From IMG/VR virus record IMGVR_UViG_3300033120_000868, positions 79,494-143,493 of that record: 64,000 bases of DNA; one strand, 5' to 3'. Below, piece by piece: positions 22,911 through 64,000 of the stretch. The translations under genes were made by a program, and so were the position numbers. The stretch comes from a virus. Its lineage: Duplodnaviria; Caudoviricetes. Under the pieces are notes generated by a model. The model made no database searches. It worked only from the letters and a program-made list of their open reading frames with translations, and was not told the DNA's origin. The first letter of the stretch is position 1, and each line of letters starts with the position of its first letter.

Positions 22911-23897
22911 TTATTCTTCTCCATACCCTTCAGTTATTAATTTTCTAAAAGCTAAAGATAAGTCACCCTCGCATTCTAGCTCCACAAAAACATCAGTCGG
23001 AGAATATCCCCTACCTACATCAAAACTTGTGCTTGTTGAAAAACAATTAAAAACCCTTGTGTCTGTATCAAATAAAGCACTACTACCTGATTTAGGATTA
23101 CCTGCTCTTTTTAAACGAATAGATTTTCCTCTACTACCTTTACATTCTTCCCAACCACTATCTAAAAGTAAAGAGATGACATCCCCTCTCTCGTTATAAT
23201 CTTCAAAAGGGCTTAATTTCCACTCTTTATACTTCTCTAGTCTTACATCCTTTCTTTCCTCTATTACATCATTAAATGAACGAGCTGTTTCTAAGATTAA
23301 GTTATACTCCTCAATAGAAATATGGTTTATTTTTCCATAAACAAATTCATATCCTGGGCTAGGTGACATAACAACATACCCTCCTGAAACAGTAGTAGAG
23401 CCACCACGAGTCTCAAGTAATACTCTAACCTTATCATTAGATGCTATTTTTAAAGCTTTTGAGCGAGTTTTAGCATCGTTGAATGCTTCCATATAGGTTG
23501 AATGTTTTTCGTACTCTGTAGTATATCTTGAAGCTAACTTTTGATTAGGTTCTACAACATCAGAAGAAAATATGAAATGGTAGCCTTTATTCTTAGTAGT
23601 TTGTACAAACATTTTTCTGAGAAGTTCTTCAGGTAATGCTTTTTTATACCTATCAAATAAATCTCCACTTAAATCATATTTCAAATCGAAGTCAATTGCT
23701 GTTGTCTTTTTATTTCCACCCATTAGTAAAGCAATACCCCAACAATTAATAAAATACTGCTCACATTCTTTTTCTGTCATAGGACGAGTTTGAAATTGAC
23801 TCCAATCTCTAATTGCAGGAATCTTTTCGCTTGTAACAGGAATAACGGAGTAACCTGCTTTGCTATATTGTTTTGCTAATTCTACATAATTACTCAT
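22911..23897 (-). CDS. Bifunctional DNA primase/polymerase (Prim-Pol, AEP)
   Basis: GYSVIPV..KIP..W..FQ, AIDFD, TKNKGYH, ETRG..GYVVMSPS. Confidence 0.85.
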   Translation of the reverse strand: MSNYVELAKQYSKAGYSVIPVTSEKIPAIRDWSQFQTRPMTEKECEQYFINCWGIALLMGGNKKTTAIDFDLKYDLSGDLFDRYKKALPEELLRKMFVQTTKNKGYHFIFSSDVVEPNQKLASRYTTEYEKHSTYMEAFNDAKTRSKALKIASNDKVRVLLETRGGSTTVSGGYVVMSPSPGYEFVYGKINHISIEEYNLILETARSFNDVIEERKDVRLEKYKEWKLSPFEDYNERGDVISLLLDSGWEECKGSRGKSIRLKRAGNPKSGSSALFDTDTRVFNCFSTSTSFDVGRGYSPTDVFVELECEGDLSLAFRKLITEGYGEE

Positions 23898-23998
23898 CTT
23901 TATCTAAAATATAAATATTATCAAAAGCTATATATTTATTATCTACTTTCTCACAAAATTTTTTAGCCAAAAATTCAACAATAAAAAACGGCAATATT

Positions 23999-24220
23999 TT
24001 ATAAAAATTCCTCATACTTTGCGTATAAACCTAATTCAAAACTTTTTAAATCGACATTATCAGGAGGGTATGTTATATAAACTTGTCTATAATCACCCAT
24101 TAAACCTGCGTCTTCATACTCCCAATAAGCATAACAAGGGTACTTTTTAGGATACTCTTTAATATATTTCTTATCGTAAGGATAGAACTTTTCAAATTCC
24201 TCGTTGTTATTAATTTTCAT
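23999..24220 (-). CDS. hypothetical protein
   Basis: ORF in operon. Confidence 0.6.
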   Translation of the reverse strand: MKINNNEEFEKFYPYDKKYIKEYPKKYPCYAYWEYEDAGLMGDYRQVYITYPPDNVDLKSFELGLYAKYEEFL

Positions 24221-24234
24221 TTTTGATTGTTATT

Positions 24235-24504
24235 TTACACATTTTTACTAACACTTGAAGGTAAACTACCCAAATAAAGACTAACACGGATAGCATTTTT
24301 CTTTAACTTAGTTAGCCTTTTACCTTTTAACATTTCTTCAATTATTTCATCTTGTCTTTCTTGTGGCATATAATAATTATAAAACCACCCATCACGTTTT
24401 GTGACACCTTTTTCAATAAGCTCATCTAAATCGACACCTATTTCGGAATAAATTCTTCTGTAGATGTCCATCATAAGTTGCTCTTCTTTTTTAGTAGCTC
24501 TCAT
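24235..24504 (-). CDS. hypothetical protein
   Basis: ORF in operon. Confidence 0.65.
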   Translation of the reverse strand: MRATKKEEQLMMDIYRRIYSEIGVDLDELIEKGVTKRDGWFYNYYMPQERQDEIIEEMLKGKRLTKLKKNAIRVSLYLGSLPSSVSKNV

Positions 24505-24871
24505 AATAATCAGGTTTCATTTTCTTCCAAAAAGTTTCAAAGAAATCTTCAATATCTTTTAATGTTGTTACAGGTCTCCACTCATTAGGAAGTACATCTC
24601 CCCAATATTCAATATTGCACGTATTATCTTTACCTTCATTATCAAACCTAAACTGAGTGTCAGCAGTGTAAGAATCACCTTTCGGTAGATTTTCTAAACC
24701 TAACTGCTCAGAATGATTATAGTGCCAAATAGTAATAAAATACTTTACACCCTTTTTATCTGTAAACTTTTTTTGAAATCCTCTCAAAGAGTTGTTAAAT
24801 GAAGACTTGAATATTTTATACCCCTTGTCAATCATTTCTTGTTCAAAATTGTTTCTTATTGTCGTATCCAT
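24491..24871 (-). CDS. hypothetical protein
   Basis: ORF in operon. Confidence 0.7.
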   Translation of the reverse strand: MDTTIRNNFEQEMIDKGYKIFKSSFNNSLRGFQKKFTDKKGVKYFITIWHYNHSEQLGLENLPKGDSYTADTQFRFDNEGKDNTCNIEYWGDVLPNEWRPVTTLKDIEDFFETFWKKMKPDYYESY

Positions 24872-54619: not shown

Positions 54620-54658
54620 GGTTAGTATAGGTGAGTTTCGCTTAGCCAATAGTTGTAA
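54620..54658 (+). other. putative attI-like primary recombination site
   Basis: GTTGTAA at 54652 matches the TTACAAC end of cassette 1 but has no upstream hairpin arm. Confidence 0.55.
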
Positions 54659-54678
54659 AACAGTTTAGAAAATACTTT

Positions 54679-55209
54679 ATGAAAATAAAAGAATCAGATA
54701 TAGAAGTTATAGATTTCATATTAAACTTAAGCCTATCTAAAGAAGTTTCTTTACAAGATTTACTTGAAAATAATATAATTGATTCACAACAAGGCGAGTT
54801 TCCTGAAATAAACTTATGGTACAATCCGAAAGATGAATTTGCTAGATATTTAAAAATACTTGAAAAATACAATTTATGTAACATAGTACGCTATATTGGT
54901 GCAGAAACTGCTATTAAAAATACAAACACTTCAATAACTCTCAACAGAGGTGGTTTTAAGCCAATATTTGAAAAAATACAACTTGATGAAGAAAAAGAAC
55001 AAATTGAATTTGAAAAATCTAAAATAGATTTAAAACTTAATAAATGGCTCTTAAAGACTAAATGGCTTCCACACTTTATTACTTTCATTTCTTTACTATT
55101 CGCTGTTTACGTTTATTTCGATTCTAAAAACGATTCAAAAAAATTAGAAGAACGAATAGAAAAGTTAGAATCGAAAATACCAATCCCGAAAAATGAGTCC
55201 AAAAAATAA
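54679..55209 (+). CDS. cassette 1 gene: membrane protein, canonical cassette orientation
   Basis: 176 aa, one TM near C-terminus flanked by coiled coils; only credible + strand gene after 14.8 kb. Confidence 0.8.
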   Translation: MKIKESDIEVIDFILNLSLSKEVSLQDLLENNIIDSQQGEFPEINLWYNPKDEFARYLKILEKYNLCNIVRYIGAETAIKNTNTSITLNRGGFKPIFEKIQLDEEKEQIEFEKSKIDLKLNKWLLKTKWLPHFITFISLLFAVYVYFDSKNDSKKLEERIEKLESKIPIPKNESKK

Positions 55210-55264
55210 CCTTTGTTTCTTTGGGACAATCTTTAGACAATGCATACTTAATAATCTTAATCAT
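55124..55264 (-). CDS. small antisense membrane peptide in cassette 1 (46 aa, not in track)
   Basis: MIKIIKYALSKDCPKETKVIFWTHFSGLVFSILTFLFVLLIFLNRF. Confidence 0.4.
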   Translation of the reverse strand: MIKIIKYALSKDCPKETKVIFWTHFSGLVFSILTFLFVLLIFLNRF

Positions 55265-55330
55265 AATAAAATAATTTTAATACTTGACACTTAACAAAGG
55301 CGGACAAGTTAAACCTTAATAAAACCGATT

Positions 55331-55466
55331 TTACAACAGCGGTTTGTTTCAAGTGGCGGTTTAGTGATAATCCGAAAACGCCGTTGTAAAATTTAATAAT
55401 TAGTTTATATTTGTAATGGCTTGGTGCTGAAATCGCCACCTGAAAACAAGCCACAGAACGTTATAT
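55331..55466 (+). repeat. attC-like site 1
   Basis: TTACAAC..GGTTTGTTTCAAGTGGCG / CGCCACCTGAAAACAAGCC..GTTATAT. Confidence 0.85.
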
Positions 55467-55472
55467 GATAGC

Positions 55473-55718
55473 TTACTCAACTTTGTGGCTAAAAAGTTCA
55501 TTGTAATATTTTTCAGCTCTTTCTTCTTGTGTTATGTTATATCCGTAAAGTTCCCAATCAGCACCATCGTTGAAAGAAGTTTTTATTTGCTCTTTTTCTT
55601 TATTAATTTTATCTTCTACCATATCAATAATTAAATTAACAGTGGTTTTAATAAAAGGATTTTCGACTATTTTAGAAACTTCTTCTAATTCATTAAGTAA
55701 TTCTTGCATTGCTGTCAT
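55473..55718 (-). CDS. cassette 2 gene, phage-type small protein
   Basis: MTAMQEL..KEKEQI...F.DG..AEKYYNE. Confidence 0.75.
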   Translation of the reverse strand: MTAMQELLNELEEVSKIVENPFIKTTVNLIIDMVEDKINKEKEQIKTSFNDGADWELYGYNITQEERAEKYYNELFSHKVE

Positions 55719-55741
55719 AATAATTATGTTTAAAAGCCATC

Positions 55742-55874
55742 ATATAACAATGCATTGTAGCAATTGTGGTTTAAGGCTTAATTAATAATTTGTTTTTACT
55801 TGGTTAGTTTTAGTCTTAATTTGAAGCATTGTGCAAGTCTAACCACAACTGACTACAATGCTTTAACGTTATGT
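55742..55874 (+). repeat. attC-like site 2
   Basis: ATATAAC..GCATTGTAGCAATTGTGGTT / AACCACAACTGACTACAATGC..GTTATGT. Confidence 0.88.
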
Positions 55875-56180
55875 GATATTTTCCAAAACGACTAAATCAG
55901 AAATATCATCTAAATAATAAACAGTTTGTTCTCCGTCATACCATTGCGGTTCTATAGGTACATTTAGACTAATTGATAATTTGTATTCTTCTGTATTATT
56001 ATATTTTGTTTGTGGTGGGTATATAAAACTTATAATTCCAGTAAACCATTCGTTTCTTTCTTTTTCTTTGAATGCCACAACAGTATTTTCTTTACAGTTA
56101 ATCAAAACATCACATAACAGTGGTTTTGACTTATTGCCGTTTTCGGCTTCATTTAATGTTGGTTTTGTACTTTCTGACAT
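55869..56180 (-). CDS. cassette 3 gene (starts inside attC3)
   Basis: probable start MSESTK in attC loop; stop = TTA of R box. Confidence 0.7.
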   Translation of the reverse strand: MSESTKPTLNEAENGNKSKPLLCDVLINCKENTVVAFKEKERNEWFTGIISFIYPPQTKYNNTEEYKLSISLNVPIEPQWYDGEQTVYYLDDISDLVVLENIT

Positions 56181-56246
56181 TGTTTTTAATTTAAAGTTGG
56201 TCTTGTATTTAATCGGCAACAAGACAAAGCCACAGGAGCGTTATGC
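56112..56246 (+). repeat. attC-like site 3
   Basis: ACATAAC..TGGTTTTGACTTATTGCCG / CGGCAACAAGACAAAGCCA..GTTATGC. Confidence 0.88.
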
Positions 56247-56252
56247 ACAATA

Positions 56253-56717
56253 TTATAGAATACCATACAAATCATAATGATTTTCCAAAAACCAATTATA
56301 GTGTTCTGCAATCATATTTTTATTATATCCTAAAAAAGTAGTGATTTGTGCATGACCTCCTGTATCTCTGTTTGGTATATTTATGGTCAATGAACCATTT
56401 TTACCCTTTTTCCAAGTTATTTTATGAAAATATAAATCTTCTCTTTTTCCTAAAATATATCTTGAAAACTTACTTAATTGTTGTTGAACTAGAAAATCAT
56501 TAATATTTTTTAACTCAGGTATATACCCTAAATCTATAATATTTTTAGCTGAATCTCCGTTTTCAAAGATAAATCTTCCATTATATCCAATAAGTTTCAA
56601 TCTACCATATTGACAATTAAAATAAATCCCGTAAGGAAGATATTTAAGTAAAATACTGTGCATAACAGCGGTTTTGTCGCATTGTGGTACTTGGGTATTT
56701 TTTGAAAGTTCAGTCAT
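56253..56717 (-). CDS. cassette 4 gene (starts inside attC4)
   Basis: 154 aa; YLPYG..., WFLENHYDLYG. Confidence 0.75.
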   Translation of the reverse strand: MTELSKNTQVPQCDKTAVMHSILLKYLPYGIYFNCQYGRLKLIGYNGRFIFENGDSAKNIIDLGYIPELKNINDFLVQQQLSKFSRYILGKREDLYFHKITWKKGKNGSLTINIPNRDTGGHAQITTFLGYNKNMIAEHYNWFLENHYDLYGIL

Positions 56718-56795
56718 AATTTTAAAATTTAGTTATTATTTGTTAAGTTTGGTCTTAAATCGCCACAACGACGACAAAGCCACAGGGCGTTATCA
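56660..56795 (+). repeat. attC-like site 4
   Basis: GCATAAC..GGTTTTGTCGCATTGTGG / CCACAACGACGACAAAGCC..GTTATCA. Confidence 0.88.
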
Positions 56796-56981
56796 CTCAG
56801 CTTGTAGAACACCTAAATCATCGATGTTTAGTATTGTAAATCTATCTTGCTTTTCAAATAATTGTTCTCCAACTTCTTGTGCAATTTCTTTTTCTGAAAA
56901 GCGTAAAGTTTTTCTATTAGCACCATATAACGCTTTTTTAGTGTCTAAATCAATAATAATCCATTTTCTTTCTTTTTTCAT
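56793..56981 (-). CDS. cassette 5 gene
   Basis: 62 aa filling the cassette. Confidence 0.7.
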   Translation of the reverse strand: MKKERKWIIIDLDTKKALYGANRKTLRFSEKEIAQEVGEQLFEKQDRFTILNIDDLGVLQAE

Positions 56982-57006
56982 CTTGTTTGTATTTAAAAAG
57001 CCGAAG

Positions 57007-57138
57007 TGATAACATACGCTAACCGCTATTCAGGCTTTAGGTTAAATTTAAAGTGTGTTTTGTGTCTGTAAGATTTGTAATAATCCGAAATTTCAGTCCT
57101 TACTTTTCCTGAACATCGGTTAGCGTCCGCCGTTATGT
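57007..57138 (+). repeat. attC-like site 5
   Basis: TGATAAC..ACGCTAACCGCTATTCAGG / CCTGAACATCGGTTAGCGT..GTTATGT. Confidence 0.88.
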
Positions 57139-57139
57139 A

Positions 57140-57355
57140 TCATTTTTTAAATTGACATTTTTCGTATATTTTTGCAAGTGGTGTTATAAAATCTTTACCA
57201 GTAAATAAATATGGTATAGTTATTACAGCAGTATACGGTATATTTACAAGCAAAAATATTAACCACAGCATCATTTCATAAAAACGATACATAACAACAG
57301 ATATACTCAATTTTGAGTTCTGTGTTTCATTCAAGTTTTCTTCTTTTTCAATCAT
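57140..57355 (-). CDS. cassette 6 gene, small membrane protein (starts inside attC6)
   Basis: hydrophobic core. Confidence 0.65.
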   Translation of the reverse strand: MIEKEENLNETQNSKLSISVVMYRFYEMMLWLIFLLVNIPYTAVITIPYLFTGKDFITPLAKIYEKCQFKK

Positions 57356-57418
57356 TTTATTTATTATTTAAATTATTACTATTTAATTCAAAACTAAGTA
57401 TATCTGCAATCGTTAACC
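57289..57418 (+). repeat. attC-like site 6
   Basis: ACATAAC..CAGATATACTCAATTTTGAGTT / AATTCAAAACTAAGTATATCTG..GTTAACC. Confidence 0.85.
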
Positions 57419-57658
57419 ACAATTGCATATCAGAAGTTTAATAGACGCTATTGTATTTGATTCTGGCTTTTCAAATTCAGTTACAAATTCCAATCCTTTT
57501 TTATCTAATTCATCAAACAAAAAGTTGTCAATATCTTGGTAAGAATTAAACCATTTCATCCCGTTTCTATTGCTTTTTTCAAGTTCGGATAAAGCAACTG
57601 TGGTTAACACAGGTTTTGTGCTATTGCTTGGCTTGTTGTTTTCTGAATGTTTATTCAT
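57413..57658 (-). CDS. cassette 7 gene (starts inside attC7)
   Basis: stop = TTA of R box. Confidence 0.7.
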   Translation of the reverse strand: MNKHSENNKPSNSTKPVLTTVALSELEKSNRNGMKWFNSYQDIDNFLFDELDKKGLEFVTEFEKPESNTIASIKLLICNCG

Positions 57659-57736
57659 AATCTGTAATTTTTAGTGTTTAATTTAATGTTTTAGTTTTCT
57701 TTTACGCAACAGACACAAAGCCTGAGGACGTTATAA
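57602..57736 (+). repeat. attC-like site 7
   Basis: GGTTAAC..CAGGTTTTGTGCTATTGC / GCAACAGACACAAAGCCTG..GTTATAA. Confidence 0.88.
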
Positions 57737-57746
57737 GAAATAGCTA

Positions 57747-57974
57747 CTAATCGTTTTCAAAATCAAATTCTTCTTCAATAATATCTAATAGACTTGTGGC
57801 TATATCTCCGTTATGTATTCTAAAAGCTATCTTTTTAGCTTCAGAAACTATATATTCAGCGTCATCTTCGCTTATAAGTTCAAAAACCGCTGGGTCTGTA
57901 ATGTCATTTGCAATTAAAATAGCTTGACACCATCTTTTCGCTATTCTTTTTAAAACTAATTTATCTTTTACCAT
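57747..57974 (-). CDS. cassette 8 gene
   Basis: probable start MVKDK (frame open back to 58058 inside attC8). Confidence 0.7.
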   Translation of the reverse strand: MVKDKLVLKRIAKRWCQAILIANDITDPAVFELISEDDAEYIVSEAKKIAFRIHNGDIATSLLDIIEEEFDFEND

Positions 57975-58003
57975 AACTTTTAATTTAAATTTACCGCTAC
58001 TTC

Positions 58004-58081
58004 TTATAACAGGTGTTTGTAAATACCAGCCGAATATACTATGCGTGTAGGCTGGCATCTACAAGCACCAAAACGTTAGCA
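58004..58081 (+). repeat. attC-like site 8 (short, 78 bp)
   Basis: TTATAAC..GGTGTTTGTAAATACCAGCC / GGCTGGCATCTACAAGCACC..GTTAGCA. Confidence 0.88.
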
Positions 58082-58091
58082 AACATTGTTA

Positions 58092-58421
58092 CTATTTCGT
58101 TAAAAAGAAATCATATCCAACAAACGGCAAAGAAGCTCTAAATTTAGTATCTTTTGGAACATTCCATTTTTTTATCAATCTAACAACTGATTTTAATGAA
58201 TAAGCATCGTTAAAACCATCGTGTGACATAGAATAATACACAGATGTATTTCCTGTTTTTTCCCATTCTCCTGTTTGGGTATTAAACCATAAATTATTTT
58301 CAACTGGTTCTATCCAAAATGGTCTTTTCATTCTTCTTTTAGAACCATCTTCATATTTAGAATGAATTGTAACGCTTTTAAAAATCCTTTGCCCTTTAGG
58401 TTTACTTGAAATAATTTTCAT
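58092..58421 (-). CDS. cassette 9 gene
   Basis: probable start MKIISS. Confidence 0.7.
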   Translation of the reverse strand: MKIISSKPKGQRIFKSVTIHSKYEDGSKRRMKRPFWIEPVENNLWFNTQTGEWEKTGNTSVYYSMSHDGFNDAYSLKSVVRLIKKWNVPKDTKFRASLPFVGYDFFLTK

Positions 58422-58453
58422 AATATTTTTTATTTTAAATACCCACAACGATT

Positions 58454-58588
58454 TGCTAACAGCATATTTATTCAATTGTGGCTTTTGGGTTAATTAAATG
58501 TTTATTGTGTGTTTGTAATGTTAATTTTTAAATTGATAGTTCGTTTTGTGCTTATCCACAACTGAAATAAATACCCAAAACGTTAGTG
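58454..58588 (+). repeat. attC-like site 9
   Basis: TGCTAAC..TATTTATTCAATTGTGG / CCACAACTGAAATAAATA..GTTAGTG. Confidence 0.85.
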
Positions 58589-58927
58589 ACAATTGCAGAC
58601 AAGACGTTCAATAAGATAATCACTATCTTTTTTAACAATAGGAATTATCAAATTTTTAATCTGTTTTTTTTGTTTTTTATTCATTTTAGGATTTACTGGT
58701 TGTATTATTTCCCCCGTATTAATCATAATTAATATTCCTTTGTCCTTATGTTGTACAGAAGAATCTAATGATTTCCCATTGAACCATTTTGCAGAAAAAC
58801 ATTCAGGATTTGATTTTAAAATTTCAATTACCTTTTCTATAAATACTTGTTCGTGAGCATCCAAAGGAGAACAACTGTCACTAACAGCGTGTATAAAAAA
58901 TGGCTTTTTTAGGCTTAATTTAAACAT
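58583..58927 (-). CDS. cassette 10 gene (starts inside attC10)
   Basis: stop = TTA of R box. Confidence 0.7.
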   Translation of the reverse strand: MFKLSLKKPFFIHAVSDSCSPLDAHEQVFIEKVIEILKSNPECFSAKWFNGKSLDSSVQHKDKGILIMINTGEIIQPVNPKMNKKQKKQIKNLIIPIVKKDSDYLIERLVCNCH

Positions 58928-59010
58928 AATTTTGTGTTTTTATAATTAGTAATAATTCAATAATTTAGGCGTACTTGCACGCCACTTCTTATACACGCAA
59001 AACGTTATAG
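58879..59010 (+). repeat. attC-like site 10
   Basis: CACTAAC..GCGTGTATAAAAAATGGC / GCCACTTCTTATACACGC..GTTATAG. Confidence 0.88.
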
Positions 59011-59030
59011 TTAATGGCTACAAATTGTTT

Positions 59031-59429
59031 TTACATACCTATATTTTCAATTCCAAGTAACTCAATAAGTATATGTATCTCTTTACTACCCCATTCGTTT
59101 TCTATATTAAATATAATTTCTTTGTCAGATAAAATTTCTTGCATATAATTATCCTTTACTTTTACACCCCACCAATTACCGTCTGATGCAAGAGTTAAAA
59201 TATCTGAATTATCACGAATTGTTTTAATCTTATCATAAAAAGACATTTGGTTAAATCTTTTAGCCATTTCTACGTATTGCTCTAAAGTGAATTTTCTTTT
59301 ATAATTATTGTTCGTGCTTTTAGCTCTCATATAATCATCATATTCTCTAGTACTCATACCTCTTGGGTCTTGTGTATCATAAAAATCACTTGCTTTAACA
59401 TCTCTGTAATCAATTCTTTTGTTTTTCAT
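59031..59429 (-). CDS. cassette 11 gene, paralog of backbone gene 14832-15095
   Basis: shared T.EQY....RFN.MSF..K..TI..N..I.....DG. Confidence 0.75.
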   Translation of the reverse strand: MKNKRIDYRDVKASDFYDTQDPRGMSTREYDDYMRAKSTNNNYKRKFTLEQYVEMAKRFNQMSFYDKIKTIRDNSDILTLASDGNWWGVKVKDNYMQEILSDKEIIFNIENEWGSKEIHILIELLGIENIGM

Positions 59430-59457
59430 AATTTCAGTTTTTAAAAACCGCCACTAA

Positions 59458-59590
59458 CTATAACAGTAGTTTGTAGCAATGGCTGGCTTGTTGTTTAATT
59501 TAATGTTTTTGGCTTATCGGTATTGTAGTTTTTAAACCAAAACTACTCGCTTACTTGCACGCCACTGCAACAAGCTACAAAACGTTAGGC
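59458..59590 (+). repeat. attC-like site 11
   Basis: CTATAAC..GTAGTTTGTAGCAATGGC / GCCACTGCAACAAGCTAC..GTTAGGC. Confidence 0.88.
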
Positions 59591-59821
59591 GATATGCCCT
59601 ACACCCTTACTGTCAGCAAATTGGTATCCGTGTCTTTGATTACTATATTTCTTTTCTCGTCCTTGCATACCATCTGTCCATACTTTACCACAACACTTGC
59701 AACGATAGGCACGTCTCCCATCAAATGCTCTACCTTTTTCAGGGTTAGTTGTTTGACAAGAAGCACATCGCCTAACATCGGCTTTGTTCAATACCTTATC
59801 TTCTGTATTATCGTTTTTCAT
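59585..59821 (-). CDS. cassette 12 gene, Zn-ribbon protein (starts inside attC12)
   Basis: CASC...YRCKCCG; stop = TTA of R box. Confidence 0.7.
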   Translation of the reverse strand: MKNDNTEDKVLNKADVRRCASCQTTNPEKGRAFDGRRAYRCKCCGKVWTDGMQGREKKYSNQRHGYQFADSKGVGHIA

Positions 59822-59892
59822 GTTATTTAAATTTTAAAAATTACGTTTAGTTTTCATAAGTCGGCACTAAACAAAGCCGAGAACCGTTAGCA
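59770..59892 (+). repeat. attC-like site 12
   Basis: GCCTAAC..TCGGCTTTGTTCAATACC / GGCACTAAACAAAGCCGA..GTTAGCA. Confidence 0.88.
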
Positions 59893-59896
59893 GTAA

Positions 59897-60139
59897 TTAA
59901 TCCTCGAACTTAACAAATTTGAATTTATACCCACCTTTCTTAATTCCAAACTTCTCACACCATCTTTCAAACCAATTTGATTTAATGATTATTATTTGCC
60001 ATTTTTCTGCATAATCTAACGCATTTTGTTCTGTAATTAATCCATCTTTTTCAAGGCGTTCTAAAACTAAGTCTTTTACTTGATTTGCGTTTAGTGTATA
60101 TTCTTCTAAAGAAATTAACATTCCATCCATTTGTGCCAT
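59897..60139 (-). CDS. cassette 13 gene
   Basis: 80 aa filling the cassette. Confidence 0.7.
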   Translation of the reverse strand: MAQMDGMLISLEEYTLNANQVKDLVLERLEKDGLITEQNALDYAEKWQIIIIKSNWFERWCEKFGIKKGGYKFKFVKFED

Positions 60140-60161
60140 AATATTTGTATTTTATAACTAC

Positions 60162-60293
60162 TGCTAACAACGGTTATACAATAGTTGGGTTAATTGTTTA
60201 ATTTAAAGTCTGTTTTGTGCTTTTAAAATCTGTGATAAATCAAAAGTTAAGGAGTACCAACCCCAACCATCGTATAGCCGTCGAACGTTATGT
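60162..60293 (+). repeat. attC-like site 13
   Basis: TGCTAAC..ACGGTTATACAATAGTTGGG / CCCAACCATCGTATAGCCGT..GTTATGT. Confidence 0.88.
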
Positions 60294-60299
60294 GCCATT

Positions 60300-60509
60300 T
60301 TAAGACACACTATCCTTCAACTTTTGCAGTTCGACAATTAAGTCATCTACTTGTTGAATTAAGTTCATTTTGGCTGACCAATCATTTGCTCCATATCCTG
60401 AAAATTCAGCGCGGAAATGACCCCAAGCGTGATTTTTAGAACTTAATTCGATTTCGGCTTCACAACTTTGAGCCTTTTGTTTACCATCGTTTCTTAATTT
60501 TATTTCCAT
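60300..60509 (-). CDS. cassette 14 gene
   Basis: 69 aa filling the cassette. Confidence 0.7.
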   Translation of the reverse strand: MEIKLRNDGKQKAQSCEAEIELSSKNHAWGHFRAEFSGYGANDWSAKMNLIQQVDDLIVELQKLKDSVS

Positions 60510-60538
60510 TTTATTGTTGATTTATTAATAAAAACGGC

Positions 60539-60634
60539 ACATAACAAGGGTTTTGCGTAATAGCCCTATCAAGTGTCGTGGTTAATTTTAAGTTTTTACT
60601 AAGGGCTACTACGCAAAGCCCCGATACGTTATCA
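60539..60634 (+). repeat. attC-like site 14
   Basis: ACATAAC..GGGTTTTGCGTAATAGCCCT / AGGGCTACTACGCAAAGCCC..GTTATCA. Confidence 0.88.
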
Positions 60635-60859
60635 CTCAGCTTTTGACGAACTAAATAAATAAGCTAATTTCTCTGGAATAAGCATTTTTACTTTCACACT
60701 TGTTCCATTCCAAAAACTTTCTTCTACGTCATACGACTGAATTATTCCGTTGTGGTTTTCTATTTTTTTTTCTAAATCACGTGCTTGAGATTTTGTTTTA
60801 CATACTGCTGAAAAAAGTAAATATTTAATTCCGTTTACTTCATAAATTAATTGTTCCAT
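60632..60859 (-). CDS. cassette 15 gene
   Basis: 75 aa filling the cassette. Confidence 0.7.
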   Translation of the reverse strand: MEQLIYEVNGIKYLLFSAVCKTKSQARDLEKKIENHNGIIQSYDVEESFWNGTSVKVKMLIPEKLAYLFSSSKAE

Positions 60860-60880
60860 TTTGTGTGAATTAAGCCGAAG

Positions 60881-61012
60881 TGATAACAGTGGTTACACAA
60901 TATTGCCACTTCTGGAGTTATTTAATGTTGTTTTTGTACTTGTTTTGTTGGTTGTTTAATCGAATATTTTCGCTTACTTTTGGCAACATCGTGTAGCCAC
61001 AAAACGTTATAA
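60881..61012 (+). repeat. attC-like site 15
   Basis: TGATAAC..GTGGTTACACAATATTGCCA / TGGCAACATCGTGTAGCCAC..GTTATAA. Confidence 0.88.
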
Positions 61013-61249
61013 CTCATTTTTAGAAAGAGCTATGTTTACAATTGATATTGCTTTTTTAATCTGAGATATACTTTTAAATTCAGGCGTTATGTCAATTAAT
61101 TCTTCATCAGTGAGTATTTCACATAAATAATCATATTCTTCATCATTTATTCTCCAAAGTTGTTTATACATATCATCAAACGCATCTGTAATACCGCCAC
61201 ATCCTTTGTAAACTATATCTGTTCTATTTTTCCTTTCAAATCGTGTCAT
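61007..61249 (-). CDS. cassette 16 gene
   Basis: stop = TTA of R box. Confidence 0.7.
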   Translation of the reverse strand: MTRFERKNRTDIVYKGCGGITDAFDDMYKQLWRINDEEYDYLCEILTDEELIDITPEFKSISQIKKAISIVNIALSKNEL

Positions 61250-61261
61250 AATTAAAACGAG

Positions 61262-61394
61262 TTATAACAGTGGTTTTGCTCAATGGCTGTTTTTGGCAAA
61301 ACTTATACACTGTTTTGTGTTTGTAAAATTTGTTTTTAATTCAATAATTTAGGCTTGCTTTTCAGCCACTAAGCAAAGCCACAGGACGTTAACA
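61262..61394 (+). repeat. attC-like site 16
   Basis: TTATAAC..GTGGTTTTGCTCAATGGCTG / CAGCCACTAAGCAAAGCCAC..GTTAACA. Confidence 0.88.
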
Positions 61395-61441
61395 GATATG
61401 GTATGAAGTAGATACCGCATACCATTCTGAAAACTACCTTT

Positions 61442-61810
61442 TTATTTTTTAAACAACCAATTTGATTTTTCTGTACTTTTAAATTCAGATAAATAATTTT
61501 GAAATTGTTCATAGCTACAATCTAATATTTCTTTAGCATCAATTGAATGAGAATAATCAATATTATCTAATGATTCCAAAGTGAACAACATATTGTCTTG
61601 CCATTTAACACCATCAATAGACAATAAAACTTCTGACCTAATTTGTCTTTGATAGACAATTTTATAACCTTCCCACCACTTTGAAAATCTATTTTCAAGT
61701 TCTTCTTGTTCTGAACATTCTAAATTTGAAGCATCGCTCGATGATTGCAAAAATAAATCTAACGGATTTAATTTTGCTTGAATTTCTGTTGTATTAATTG
61801 TTGTTTTCAT
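61442..61810 (-). CDS. cassette 17 gene C
   Basis: 122 aa. Confidence 0.65.
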   Translation of the reverse strand: MKTTINTTEIQAKLNPLDLFLQSSSDASNLECSEQEELENRFSKWWEGYKIVYQRQIRSEVLLSIDGVKWQDNMLFTLESLDNIDYSHSIDAKEILDCSYEQFQNYLSEFKSTEKSNWLFKK

Positions 61811-61841
61811 ATTTTTTTAGCACTTATCCTTGCAATTGGTT

Positions 61842-62156
61842 TTAATTATTTAAAAATTCAGATGCTTGTATTATTTCATATTCTTTTTCATATTCAGGGC
61901 TTGTTATTCTACCACAATTTACATAAGTAATATTGCCGTCTATACTTAATGAAAAAATACTTTGTTGTGTTGTAGAAAAAAAGGGGTCATAAAAAATAGG
62001 TCTAATATTTCCTATTTGTTCACGATACCAATCTCTATGCCAAGACATTCTTTTACACTTATCATTTGGGTTAATATCTTTTCTTCTTTCCCATTCTTCA
62101 AAAGAATTAAACTGAATTAATATTTTTTTATCTTCAAAATTTTCGAGTTTTTTCAT
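61842..62156 (-). CDS. cassette 17 gene B
   Basis: 104 aa. Confidence 0.65.
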   Translation of the reverse strand: MKKLENFEDKKILIQFNSFEEWERRKDINPNDKCKRMSWHRDWYREQIGNIRPIFYDPFFSTTQQSIFSLSIDGNITYVNCGRITSPEYEKEYEIIQASEFLNN

Positions 62157-62160
62157 AATA

Positions 62161-62436
62161 CTAATAAGTTAAGTTAGAAAAAGTTTTACCTTCGTTGTTT
62201 ACGATATAGTTTTGTTCATCTTTCCATAAAGGATAAGTTTCTTTTGCATCTTCTGAAATAACAAAAGCATAACAACCACCTACTTCAATTTTTTCTTGAC
62301 CTTCTAATTGAAAAAAGTCAACATACATTTTAAAAAAAGCTTCTTCGTTTTTTTCTTTTCTAATAACTGAATAGCTTTCTCCTAAGTTCTGATTGAACTC
62401 CATTTTTACACTTGTAATTTTTCTTAATGTGTACAT
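62161..62436 (-). CDS. cassette 17 gene A
   Basis: 91 aa; MYTLR.I...N..LG..Y...YIVN..GKTF. Confidence 0.7.
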   Translation of the reverse strand: MYTLRKITSVKMEFNQNLGESYSVIRKEKNEEAFFKMYVDFFQLEGQEKIEVGGCYAFVISEDAKETYPLWKDEQNYIVNNEGKTFSNLTY

Positions 62437-62508
62437 AAATTCATATATTTATTTATTGCCTACTCTATTAGCTTTTCGGCTTCCGCTATATTTTAAAATA
62501 ACCACATC

Positions 62509-62641
62509 TGTTAACACTGCATTGTAGCAATTGTGGGTTAAGGCTTAATTAATAATTTGTTTTTTACTTGTTTTGGTTAGTTTTAAATCGAAACATTGTG
62601 CTAGTATAACCACAACTGACTACAATGCTTTAACGTTAGGT
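62509..62641 (+). repeat. attC-like site 17 (body nearly identical to attC2)
   Basis: TGTTAAC..GCATTGTAGCAATTGTGG / CCACAACTGACTACAATGC..GTTAGGT. Confidence 0.88.
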
Positions 62642-62647
62642 GCAATG

Positions 62648-63136
62648 CTACGACCACACCGCATTTTGATACTTCTTTTCATATTTGACAAATTTGTGAA
62701 TGAATCCGTAATCGTGGCAGACAAATTTATTACCTATCCAACCAAAATTATCTGCCTTGACATCTGTAAAGAAATAAGGCACTTTTTTTGGGCGTTCTTT
62801 ATCTAACTGTTTAGTCCGTTCCATTATTAATACTTTACCGTTAGGACTGCACCAGTGAATCGGAGCAAACCATTCTTTTACCCAAGCAAGATTTCCTTTT
62901 AATCCTTGAATTTCATCCCAAAGTAAAAATTCAGCGATGTTGCAATCTGTACTGTTTGGTTCAACTTTTACAACCATTTTATTTGGGTTCATATTGAACT
63001 CGTAAACACTTCTGTAAGAACCACTACCCAATTTTTCACCACAAAGAGTAAGTATTAAATCTGTATTTACATCTTGTAATTTACTTAAAGTAGAAACTTC
63101 ATCTACATTATTTAATCTATTTGTTAATCTAATCAT
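62648..63136 (-). CDS. cassette 18 gene, minimal protein-kinase-like protein
   Basis: LGSGSYRSVY, VVK, E, LIME, DVKADNFG, HDYG. Confidence 0.75.
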   Translation of the reverse strand: MIRLTNRLNNVDEVSTLSKLQDVNTDLILTLCGEKLGSGSYRSVYEFNMNPNKMVVKVEPNSTDCNIAEFLLWDEIQGLKGNLAWVKEWFAPIHWCSPNGKVLIMERTKQLDKERPKKVPYFFTDVKADNFGWIGNKFVCHDYGFIHKFVKYEKKYQNAVWS

Positions 63137-63174
63137 TTTTTAAGGTTTAAAACCGTTTAACAAAAAAGCACTGC

Positions 63175-63307
63175 ACCTAACAAGGTATTGCCAAAAGTGG
63201 GGCTTTCGTGCTTTCTATTATCTTCTGTACTCATATTTAACATTTGTTCTTTTAATTAACTTTGGTGGTTTAATGCCCCACCTTCGGCAATACCCAAAAC
63301 GTTATAA
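63175..63307 (+). repeat. attC-like site 18
   Basis: ACCTAAC..GGTATTGCCAAAAGTGGGGC / GCCCCACCTTCGGCAATACC..GTTATAA. Confidence 0.88.
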
Positions 63308-63313
63308 GCCATT

Positions 63314-63514
63314 TTAACGACCACGTAACTCATTACGTTCTTTAACTTCTATTTCGTCTGTATAATCTTCAAACAATAGCTTGCCAATTTTATCCCAAGA
63401 AACAAAAGTTTCCTTTGATGGCATTCTATTTGGTTTCAATCTTGCAGGAATATTTGTTTTTAAAATTACTCCTTCTTCTTTAGCTGTATAGCCTGTAATA
63501 ATTACTTTTTGCAT
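63314..63514 (-). CDS. cassette 19 gene
   Basis: 66 aa filling the cassette. Confidence 0.7.
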   Translation of the reverse strand: MQKVIITGYTAKEEGVILKTNIPARLKPNRMPSKETFVSWDKIGKLLFEDYTDEIEVKERNELRGR

Positions 63515-63559
63515 TGTTTTTAAATTAAATTGTTAAGCCAAACACGAATAAAAAACGGC

Positions 63560-63655
63560 TTATAACAGTGGTTTGGCAAAATACCGCCACAAGCCTTTGT
63601 ACTAAATTTGAACATTGTGCAAGGCGGCACTTCGCCAAGCCACCAAACGTTAGCG
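63560..63655 (+). repeat. attC-like site 19
   Basis: TTATAAC..GTGGTTTGGCAAAATACCGCC / GGCGGCACTTCGCCAAGCCAC..GTTAGCG. Confidence 0.88.
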
Positions 63656-63856
63656 GTAATGCTTTGATAAATACTTTTCGACAATATCTATCATTTGTAA
63701 TTCGTCATTGTATATATCGTAAAATCCATCAACATCTTCTAAATGTGGTCTGCTGGTTAATTTTTTAACTATTTCTTTAGCGTGGTAATTAGCACTAACC
63801 ATAACACCAGTTTTGCAAGATTGCTTGTTTTGTGATTTTTTGGAAACTTTAGTCAT
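63650..63856 (-). CDS. cassette 20 gene (starts inside attC20)
   Basis: stop = TTA of R box. Confidence 0.65.
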   Translation of the reverse strand: MTKVSKKSQNKQSCKTGVMVSANYHAKEIVKKLTSRPHLEDVDGFYDIYNDELQMIDIVEKYLSKHYR

Positions 63857-63931
63857 AATTTTAAGTGTATTTTGTATTTGTTAATTTTAGGTTTTTAGTT
63901 CGCAACCTCGCAAAGCCAAAAATCGTTATAG
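63799..63931 (+). repeat. attC-like site 20
   Basis: CCATAAC..TTTTGCAAGATTGC / GCAACCTCGCAAAG..GTTATAG. Confidence 0.8.
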
Positions 63932-63937
63932 CAAATG

Positions 63938-64000
63938 CTAGAAATCAATATCCGTTACAATAAATGTTTCATTACAATCTTCGCAAGTAATTTCTATATC
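63938..64000 (-). CDS. cassette 21 gene, C-terminal fragment (Zn-ribbon-like)
   Basis: ...DIEITCEDCNETFIVTDIDF* runs off the window end. Confidence 0.55.
   Translation of the reverse strand, partial: DIEITCEDCNETFIVTDIDF

Follow-up and report, generated by a model that had tools for sequence, protein, structure and literature searches.

The stretch analysed here (the window, 64,000 bp) is the last 64 kb of the 143,493-bp virus record IMGVR_UViG_3300033120_000868 (positions 79,494 to 143,493), which has a G+C content of about 30 %, is rated complete by CheckV and represents a large Flavobacterium-type phage. Towards its end, the window carries what we interpret, with a probability of roughly 0.7, as a recombinase-less integron-like array, built on a hairpin family that is common to Flavobacteriaceae chromosomes and many unrelated phages and around which phage and host genes are oriented as mirror images of one another. 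The array (54653–63927) consists of 20 complete cassettes and 20 hairpin sites of ~126 nt, each reading TAAC...GTTA on the + strand. The gene of cassette 1 lies on the + strand, and the other 19 cassettes contain − strand genes, 21 in all, as one cassette holds three. The initial annotation of this DNA, made from the sequence alone, had described 19 of 20 cassettes as carrying their gene backwards, with every gene from cassette 2 onward on the − strand, and the open frames agree; it had the array start at 55460, however, when it begins near 54650, at a hairpin-less attI-like site (54648–54655).

Structure of the hairpin sites

All 20 hairpins of the window start with AAC and end with GTT on the + strand (first, 55335–55462; last, 63803–63927). 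Seventeen are 115–128 nt long and the three short forms measure 70, 88 and 88 nt. Their ends are invariant on the + strand (TAACA and CGTTA, with a TAAC/GTTA core); read on the − strand, the site comprises 5′-TAACG, a bulge of 4–5 nt, a stem of ~20 bp, an A-rich loop of ~70 nt, the other arm and TGTTA-3′. Compensatory changes are present in 15 of the 22 predicted stem pairs, and two stem pairs are G.T on the − strand in 17/17 sequences (A.C on the + strand). The inverse core sites of an imperfect palindrome (RYYYAAC ... GTTRRRY) with a G|TT crossover are those of an attC site, but the attC-type pair of extrahelical bases is lacking; in its place the core is flanked, on the 5′ arm of the putative reactive strand, by a 4–5-nt bulge.

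The gene segments between the hairpins carry terminal repeats of their own. The 14 nt following the GTT of one hairpin match the reverse complement of the 14 nt preceding the AAC of the next at a mean of 10.6/14 positions, compared with 5.9/14 for the two flanks of one hairpin and 5.3/14 for unrelated pairs. These repeats show compensatory changes at many positions, and position 8 has A opposite C on the + strand in 16/19 pairs, which is G.T on the − strand. Pairing of this kind across the gene is the signature that would be expected if each unit can circularise.

Using 17 of the window hairpins, we built a covariance model (R1), which recovered 20/20 window hairpins, on the − strand only (the modelled strand). 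Five further hairpins were found by R1 in the remaining genome, three of them at the contig start (genome positions 3–130, 422–547 and 695–823), indicating that the array continues across the contig ends. The last 356 bp of the record (window 63645–64000) are identical to genome 539–894 and not to the contig start; genome 1–538 (two hairpins and one gene) would fit either a variant cassette arrangement within the sequenced population or a break of the assembly in the array. A search of Rfam matched no attC-type family, the DUF805b motif being the sole match.

The hairpin 4 type (window 56655–56800; viral contigs L001, L002 and L004–L008) recurs, at 91–97 % identity over ~133 nt, between different flanking genes in at least eight unrelated phage contigs; its loop codes an in-frame leader, MTELSKNTQVPQCDKTAVM, that ends in a GTTATG box, and the 4-nt bulge alone is hypervariable. 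The nearest relative of a phage hairpin was another phage hairpin in 25 cases and a host-set hairpin in 22, so that hairpin sequence alone is not a clean separator of the two classes.

Arrays beside an Xer-like recombinase in Flavobacterium genomes

Host loci were sought in genome assemblies with a pattern for the commonest hairpin arms. The scan returned 82 loci, most of them labelled Flavobacterium, many from isolates and on contigs of up to 3.1 Mb, and R1 gave 181 matches on 37 of the 82, always on one strand per locus. Each of the five genomes examined codes a 347–368-aa tyrosine recombinase that outscores its own XerC/D-like genes on the integron-integrase model, and at 5/7 host loci the array starts no more than ~2 kb past the 3′ end of this gene, with constant hairpin polarity. 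The match of the host recombinase to TIGR02249 (203 bits, cut-off 265) comes in two pieces that skip model positions 180–237; the skipped region (~40 residues) is where IntI bears its specific insert, and the host enzyme is thus Xer-like without that insert. It falls just short on NF040815 ('tyrosine recombinase/integron integrase'; 217 bits, cut-off 220). An IntI-type recombinase with the integron-specific domain was found beside the array in neither phage nor hosts, and PF00589 and TIGR02249 searches found no tyrosine recombinase in the 143-kb phage genome (other recombinase families were not searched).

At one host locus, the recombinase-proximal cassette terminates in ...TAAC, beyond which the sequence forms no hairpin; ~100 nt separate this site from the 3′ end of the recombinase gene. 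In Flavobacterium pygoscelis (L101:10938–12555), the array is followed first by a 195-aa open frame, which has a 14-nt overlap with the stop of the recombinase gene (347 aa, L101:11512–12555); L-serine ammonia-lyase is the neighbour on the other side, so that the setting is chromosomal rather than that of a mobile element. IntegronFinder 2.0 (2022) reported no complete integron in Flavobacteriia (PMC9024848), and no description of the hairpin family or of the phage–host orientation split was found in the literature searched.

The mobile unit and its polarity

The initial annotation assigned a + polarity to the sites on the grounds that the AAC end comes first and the GTT end last. This order cannot fix polarity, because the inverted repeat reads alike on both strands; the polarity itself is nevertheless borne out by the boundaries of units that have moved. 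The same hairpins are present in cultured Flavobacterium siphophages, whose near-identical Lillamyvirus isolates differ by four rearrangements. Between lillamy9-1 and lillamy9-7, a 439-bp segment (5642–6080, a gene plus its right-hand hairpin) has moved to position 2044, with junction overlaps of 5–7 nt within GTTAT(AA). Isolates stinky9-1 and lillamy9-1 differ by the swap of a block beside the attI-like target site, lillamy9-6 has other sequence in place of an internal block, and lillamy9-7 has lost one unit. All four are bounded at + strand GTTA, with crossover at G|TTA.

Two observations on the present genome give the same boundary. The cassette 4 protein is 95 % identical in viral contig L001, and the shared DNA (56225–56784) covers only the gene and the right-hand hairpin, the neighbours differing on both sides. 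The contig-end duplicate starts at AAACGTTA and is preceded by two different hairpins in its two copies. Together with the four exact rearrangements, these boundaries define the unit on the + strand as TT, gene (reverse), hairpin, G, and confirm the crossover at the GTT end that had been proposed for the array.

The Lillamyvirus target (2037–2043), at which lillamy9-7 gained its cassette, has no hairpin and lies at the array end, and hence behaves like attI. Its counterpart in the window is the site at 54648–54655, where GTT is followed by GTAAAACAGTTT, a near reverse complement of the flank before the AAC of hairpin 1; the geometry is that of the Lillamyvirus insertion site and of the host site beside the recombinase gene. 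Insertion at an attI-like site at the recombinase-proximal array end is thus represented by the lillamy9-7 gain and the host site, and is inferred for the window site. New units enter at the hairpin-less attI-like site, at the array end lying 3′ on the − strand. Comparison of the host and phage acceptor sites places the insertion end 3′ of the array on the modelled strand in both, and it follows that phage genes face this end and host genes face away from it.

Gene orientation in phage and host arrays

Orientation was called for each pair of neighbouring hairpins from the strand with the longest open frame, by a factor of at least 1.5, and not from curated genes. A gene antisense to the modelled strand, pointing away from attI, was scored as canonical, and a gene sense on the modelled strand as flipped. 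The phage set comprised ten loci (three cultured phages, six IMG/VR contigs and the present genome). Bacterial isolate contigs gave 112 canonical, 4 flipped and 13 unclear cassettes, and the phage loci 0 canonical, 44 flipped and 5 unclear (Fisher's exact test, isolates versus phages, 4e-35). The flipped share is therefore ~3 % in Flavobacterium isolates (4/116), as against 44/44 callable cassettes in phages. Put in terms of the classical rule, by which genes run from attI toward their own attC and are transcribed from the promoter Pc, 112/116 isolate cassettes follow it, and 19/20 window cassettes and 44/44 phage cassettes do not. Host arrays accordingly do not show the inverted bias, the presence of which would have spoken against the phage-specific cassette class suggested in the initial annotation, and the split supports such a class.

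A wider set that included metagenome bins gave 178 canonical and 22 flipped cassettes, a single 9-kb contig contributing 8 of the 22. Where flipped genes lie on small contigs assigned to bacterial bins, they code for Mom, N6/N4 DNA methylases and DUF551 proteins, typical phage genes, and these contigs are therefore probably pieces of phage genomes. Among the few flipped cassettes of isolate arrays, one (L082:3652–4878, Flavobacterium cauense) codes for an erythromycin-esterase-family protein (PF05139, 114 bits).

Transcriptional setting and promoters

Cassette 1 aside, all genes from ~14 kb to the end of the window lie on the − strand, as do those of genome 1–34 kb, which places the array within a long leftward arm. 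The co-orientation with the adjacent phage arm put forward in the initial annotation holds for the window array, but it is not universal. A second array in the same genome (23393–24624) has two cassettes with reversed hairpins (23393–23523 and 24149–24280) and + strand genes (23598–23966 and 24340–24624); it sits within a − strand block and so opposes its neighbours, yet its gene–hairpin relation is still of the phage type. The invariant is thus the relation of gene to hairpin and not co-orientation with the arm.

The Bacteroidota −7 box has the consensus TAnnTTTG. This motif (only the Bacteroidota-type consensus was scanned) occurs on the gene-sense strand in 2/53 phage hairpins, which is chance level (shuffled expectation 2.1) and bears out, for the gene-sense strand, the earlier remark that no full promoter of this type was noticed inside the array. 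On the antisense strand it occurs in 16/53, none with a −33 box. Host hairpins carry it on the gene-sense strand in 130/291 cases against 23 expected, and in 0 on the other strand, and at least 34 of them have a full TTTG-N17-23-TAnnTTTG firing out into the next cassette; in L022, L055 and L063, for example, the promoter lies at about position 79 of the 127-nt hairpin on the gene-sense strand. Host hairpins thus often carry an outward promoter, of which phage hairpins hold a decayed copy in the wrong direction. Given these outward promoters, host arrays may have sources of expression besides one promoter at the insertion site. As the gene-sense promoter box is at chance level in phage hairpins, read-through from the phage arm appears the likeliest source of cassette expression. 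Such transcription would enter at the distal end and run toward the attI-like site, the reversed expression gradient that the initial annotation had put forward.

A proposed model of shared recombination and insulated expression

IntI acts on the bottom strand of attC. In the arrangement that we propose, the host Xer-like recombinase would act on the folded − strand. In host units the gene points at its own hairpin and its back is to attI and the recombinase gene, the order known from classical integrons. Phage units have the gene flipped: the hairpin lies 5′ of it and often contains the start codon, and the reading direction is toward the attI-like end. Since the hairpin fixes the polarity of insertion, a phage-type cassette in a host array should lie antisense to host transcription, just as a host-type cassette in a phage, such as cassette 1, would lie antisense to the phage arm. 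The result would be two cassette pools with one recombination system in common and insulated expression. The data suggest that phages and hosts share a gene-swapping system but keep separately expressed gene pools. A bolder version, possible but tentative, is that Flavobacteriaceae and their phages use a common hairpin-based exchange system in which the cassettes fall into two mirror-image classes, each partner being able to acquire and hold the other's cassettes only in silent antisense orientation, and one flip of gene versus hairpin converting a cassette from one pool to the other.

Layout of the array and cassette contents

The features of the window array are as follows.

54648–54655, no strand: attI-like acceptor site AATAGTT|GTAAAAC, no hairpin, array left end
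54679–55209, +: cassette 1 gene, 176 aa with a single predicted membrane helix, no other cassette of the array being host-type (canonical)
55335–55462, −: hairpin 1, closes cassette 1, R1 86 bits
55473–55718, −: cassette 2 gene, 81 aa, open frame, no Pfam match
55746–55870, −: hairpin 2, R1 94 bits
55869–56222, −: cassette 3 gene, up to 117 aa, open frame
56116–56242, −: hairpin 3, R1 108 bits
56253–56717, −: cassette 4 gene, 154 aa, open frame, first 19 codons within hairpin 4
56664–56791, −: hairpin 4, type 91–97 % identical in at least eight other phage contigs
56793–56981, −: cassette 5 gene, 62 aa, open frame
57011–57134, −: hairpin 5, R1 91 bits
57140–57355, −: cassette 6 gene, 71 aa, open frame
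57293–57414, −: hairpin 6, R1 66 bits
57413–57658, −: cassette 7 gene, 81 aa, open frame
57606–57732, −: hairpin 7, R1 97 bits
57747–58058, −: cassette 8 gene, 103 aa, open frame
58008–58077, −: hairpin 8, short form of 70 nt, R1 42 bits
58092–58475, −: cassette 9 gene, 127 aa, open frame
58458–58584, −: hairpin 9, R1 105 bits
58583–58927, −: cassette 10 gene, up to 114 aa, open frame
58883–59006, −: hairpin 10, R1 114 bits
59031–59429, −: cassette 11 gene, 132 aa, open frame
59462–59586, −: hairpin 11, R1 100 bits
59585–59821, −: cassette 12 gene, 78 aa, weak DUF7296 match below cut-off
59774–59888, −: hairpin 12, R1 75 bits
59897–60139, −: cassette 13 gene, 80 aa, open frame
60166–60289, −: hairpin 13, R1 107 bits
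60300–60509, −: cassette 14 gene, 69 aa, open frame
60543–60630, −: hairpin 14, short form of 88 nt, R1 57 bits
60632–60859, −: cassette 15 gene, 75 aa, open frame
60885–61008, −: hairpin 15, R1 114 bits
61007–61249, −: cassette 16 gene, 80 aa, open frame
61266–61390, −: hairpin 16, R1 123 bits
61442–62436, −: cassette 17, three genes (122, 104 and 91 aa) not separated by hairpins, terminal repeats paired over the full 1.1-kb segment
62513–62637, −: hairpin 17, found by R1, 86 % identical to hairpin 2
62648–63136, −: cassette 18 gene, 162 aa, 123 homologues
63179–63303, −: hairpin 18, R1 86 bits
63314–63514, −: cassette 19 gene, 66 aa, open frame
63564–63651, −: hairpin 19, short form of 88 nt, R1 57 bits, contig-end duplication begins at its GTTA end
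63650–63856, −: cassette 20 gene, 68 aa, open frame
63803–63927, −: hairpin 20, R1 100 bits, array continues beyond the window end

Pfam searches with 20 window cassette proteins gave no match above cut-offs, and tblastn of the window cassette proteins against the fetched host arrays returned only hairpin-encoded N-terminal peptides and no shared genes. In the three-gene cassette 17, the DUF805b RNA motif (Rfam RF02914; 62457–62489, − strand, 48.7 bits against a gathering threshold of 35.6) is located in the leader of the 91-aa gene (62161–62436), the product of which has no Pfam match.

The cassette 1 protein has 73 homologues, mostly on very small contigs. Its family occurs as host-type cassettes (antisense to the modelled strand) between hairpins in four other contexts, in one of which a 267-aa integrase is adjacent. 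Cassette 1 of the window is of this host type, occupies the position next to the attI-like site and lies antisense to the phage arm. The gene of cassette 18 recurs at 81 % identity in four other phage contigs, tightly packed among its neighbours and with no adjoining hairpin, suggesting that phage-type cassettes are built from ordinary phage genes. One Flavobacterium chromosome also has a relative, within a prophage-like region. Viral contigs scanned with the cassette 18 protein gave no match, and the large protein search returned its 123 relatives.

Alternative explanations

Several points weigh against a recombinase-less integron-like array with mirrored phage and host genes. The acting enzyme is assumed, as the PF00589 and TIGR02249 searches found no tyrosine recombinase in the phage. 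The signs of single-strand recombination are indirect: the G.T pairs are confined to one strand, and DNA folding energies, which favour the − strand by only ~1 kcal/mol in phages (40/53 hairpins) and do not differ between the two strands in host hairpins, do not single out a reactive strand. Direction and source of transcription were deduced from gene orientation. The orientation tally is one of longest open frames at loci that are not independent samples, and L001–L007 were found via a hairpin-encoded peptide, which biases the one matched cassette in each. Finally, the cassettes shared between host loci are divided: four keep the hairpin following the gene and two keep the preceding one (L054/L101 and L055/L063), suggesting that some exchange takes place at the other hairpin end or by homologous recombination. 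An attempt to derive the host crossover side from such shared cassettes accordingly gave a mixed result. The two pairs sharing the preceding hairpin are L054:3485–4252 versus L101:5822–6577 and L055:1045–1713 versus L063:3170–3837, and in the latter the boundary falls exactly at TGTTA| on the modelled strand.

The hairpins might instead serve early phage genes chiefly at the level of RNA or transcription (as terminators, sites of processing or modules for translation start), like the promoter early stem-loops (PeSLs) of T4-type phages. Their constant orientation to the gene would then be due to this RNA role, and exchange would be a side effect of homologous recombination between repeats. The invariant G.T pairs fall on the gene-sense strand and would be G.U in phage mRNA, start codons and N-terminal codons lie within the loop, and one hairpin type is 91–97 % conserved across unrelated phages with both flanks different, all of which would suit such a role. 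An intergenic RNA element, however, has no need of co-varying terminal repeats that pair across the gene, nor would it lead one to expect rearrangements that end within GTTAT, one of them at a hairpin-less target, or the same hairpins antisense to genes in host arrays beside a recombinase gene; the host-type promoter box, moreover, is not enriched on the phage gene-sense strand. We consider this account unlikely. It is likewise improbable that the flip is forced by DNA mechanics rather than expression, whereby the recombining strand must be single-stranded (as lagging-strand template or as the non-template strand of a strongly transcribed arm), this need and the co-orientation of genes with replication set the gene–hairpin relation in phages, and hosts take the opposite arrangement for array stability. 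The orientation of the Vibrio cholerae array relative to replication does set the rate of cassette excision (PMC13108822), the putative reactive strand is the non-template strand in the phage arrangement, and cassettes have moved recently among phage isolates; but the second array (23393–24624) keeps the flipped relation while opposing its neighbours. Such a constraint would also be compatible with expression insulation and is not exclusive of that reading.

We first suspected that the window's − strand corresponds to the conventional top strand, with phage genes in canonical gene-then-attC order, which would make the polarity given in the initial annotation wrong. The AAC...GTT order is the same on both strands, and the extra unpaired bases are on the arm opposite to that in classical attC (by comparison with Vibrio repeats), as this reading would have it. 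It was discarded on the boundary evidence, 6/6 phage observations keeping the hairpin with the gene whose start adjoins it, and host arrays beside the recombinase show the opposite gene orientation at the same hairpin polarity; we regard a reversed polarity as highly improbable.

Comparison with known systems

The arrays resemble sedentary chromosomal integrons such as that of Vibrio cholerae (repeats of ~123–126 nt) in their single-gene units, imperfect palindromes, inverse AAC/GTT cores, G|TT crossover, complementary cassette ends and insertion at a non-hairpin site at one array end, and the host loci also have a tyrosine recombinase gene beside the array with cassette genes pointing away. 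They differ in that the recombinase is Xer-like, lacks the IntI-specific insert and is transcribed toward the array, in the 4–5-nt bulge beside the core in place of two extrahelical bases, in terminal repeats of ~15 nt rather than 7, and in the flipped genes of essentially every phage cassette. Repeated stem-loops around small genes in a plastic phage region are also reminiscent of T4-type phages, in which PeSL units, reportedly described by Arbiol and colleagues in 2010, are stem-loop modules that flank small early accessory genes, with a presumed role in their shuffling. A PeSL includes a promoter, and its shuffling is by homologous recombination, whereas the hairpins described here have no promoter box on the gene strand, recombine at site-specific junctions and recur in host arrays beside a recombinase.

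A phage precedent is the cluster of attC sites lacking an integrase (CALIN): recombinase-less attC-like clusters have been reported in virulent phages, including the Flavobacteriaceae phage Polaribacter P12002L, the cassettes of which code DNA methyltransferases (Front Microbiol 2023, PMC9892861). The clusters in that study have at least two sites, with three in the largest one drawn; they were found with classical attC models, and no host-versus-phage orientation rule was given (PMC9892861). A CALIN is defined by two or more attC sites within 4 kb of each other on one strand and no integron integrase close by. Judged with our own model, the window array resembles such a cluster (R1 finds 20 sites on one strand, and PF00589 and TIGR02249 no recombinase in 143 kb), but it has at least 20 cassettes and a hairpin family different from classical attC. 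Of the phage sites tested, P12002L_attC1 alone was not recombined by IntI1 (PMC9892861); judging by its primer sequence, the layout of this site is AAC-N6-stem...stem-N3-GTT, as in the hairpin family here. R1 has a single match in P12002L (L009, 14501–14626, 47.6 bits), among tail genes.

Inverted or self-expressed cassettes of chromosomal integrons (toxin–antitoxin cassettes with their own promoter; PMC13108822) are similarly expressed independently of the attI promoter; they are, however, a minority in host arrays, and the flipped form is the rule in phages, with no promoter of its own detected. As in integrons with an inverted integrase (Treponema type; Cury et al. 2016, PMC4889954), the Flavobacterium recombinase gene is co-directed with the cassette genes, but the inversion in the Treponema type concerns the recombinase gene and not the relation of gene to attC.

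Significance

The arrays described above depart in three ways from the usual view of integrons. Integrons are viewed as bacterial devices whose recombination site enforces one gene orientation, for expression from a promoter at the insertion site. Here, a large site family, unreported in IntegronFinder surveys, fills Flavobacterium chromosomes beside an Xer-like enzyme; unrelated phages infecting these bacteria bear arrays of up to 20 or more cassettes on the same sites; and the phage cassettes systematically mirror those of the host. This gives a testable rule by which virus and host might share gene capture without expressing each other's cargo, and cultured phage–host pairs are available for the purpose: Lillamyvirus, among the isolates of which cassettes have moved, grows on Flavobacterium sp. 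LMO9. The orientation of the gene relative to the hairpin also offers a simple criterion for separating phage from host array fragments in metagenomes. If the mirror-image classes are real, host arrays could be unexpressed stores of phage anti-defence genes, and phage arrays could ferry host cassettes, such as cassette 1, in unexpressed form.

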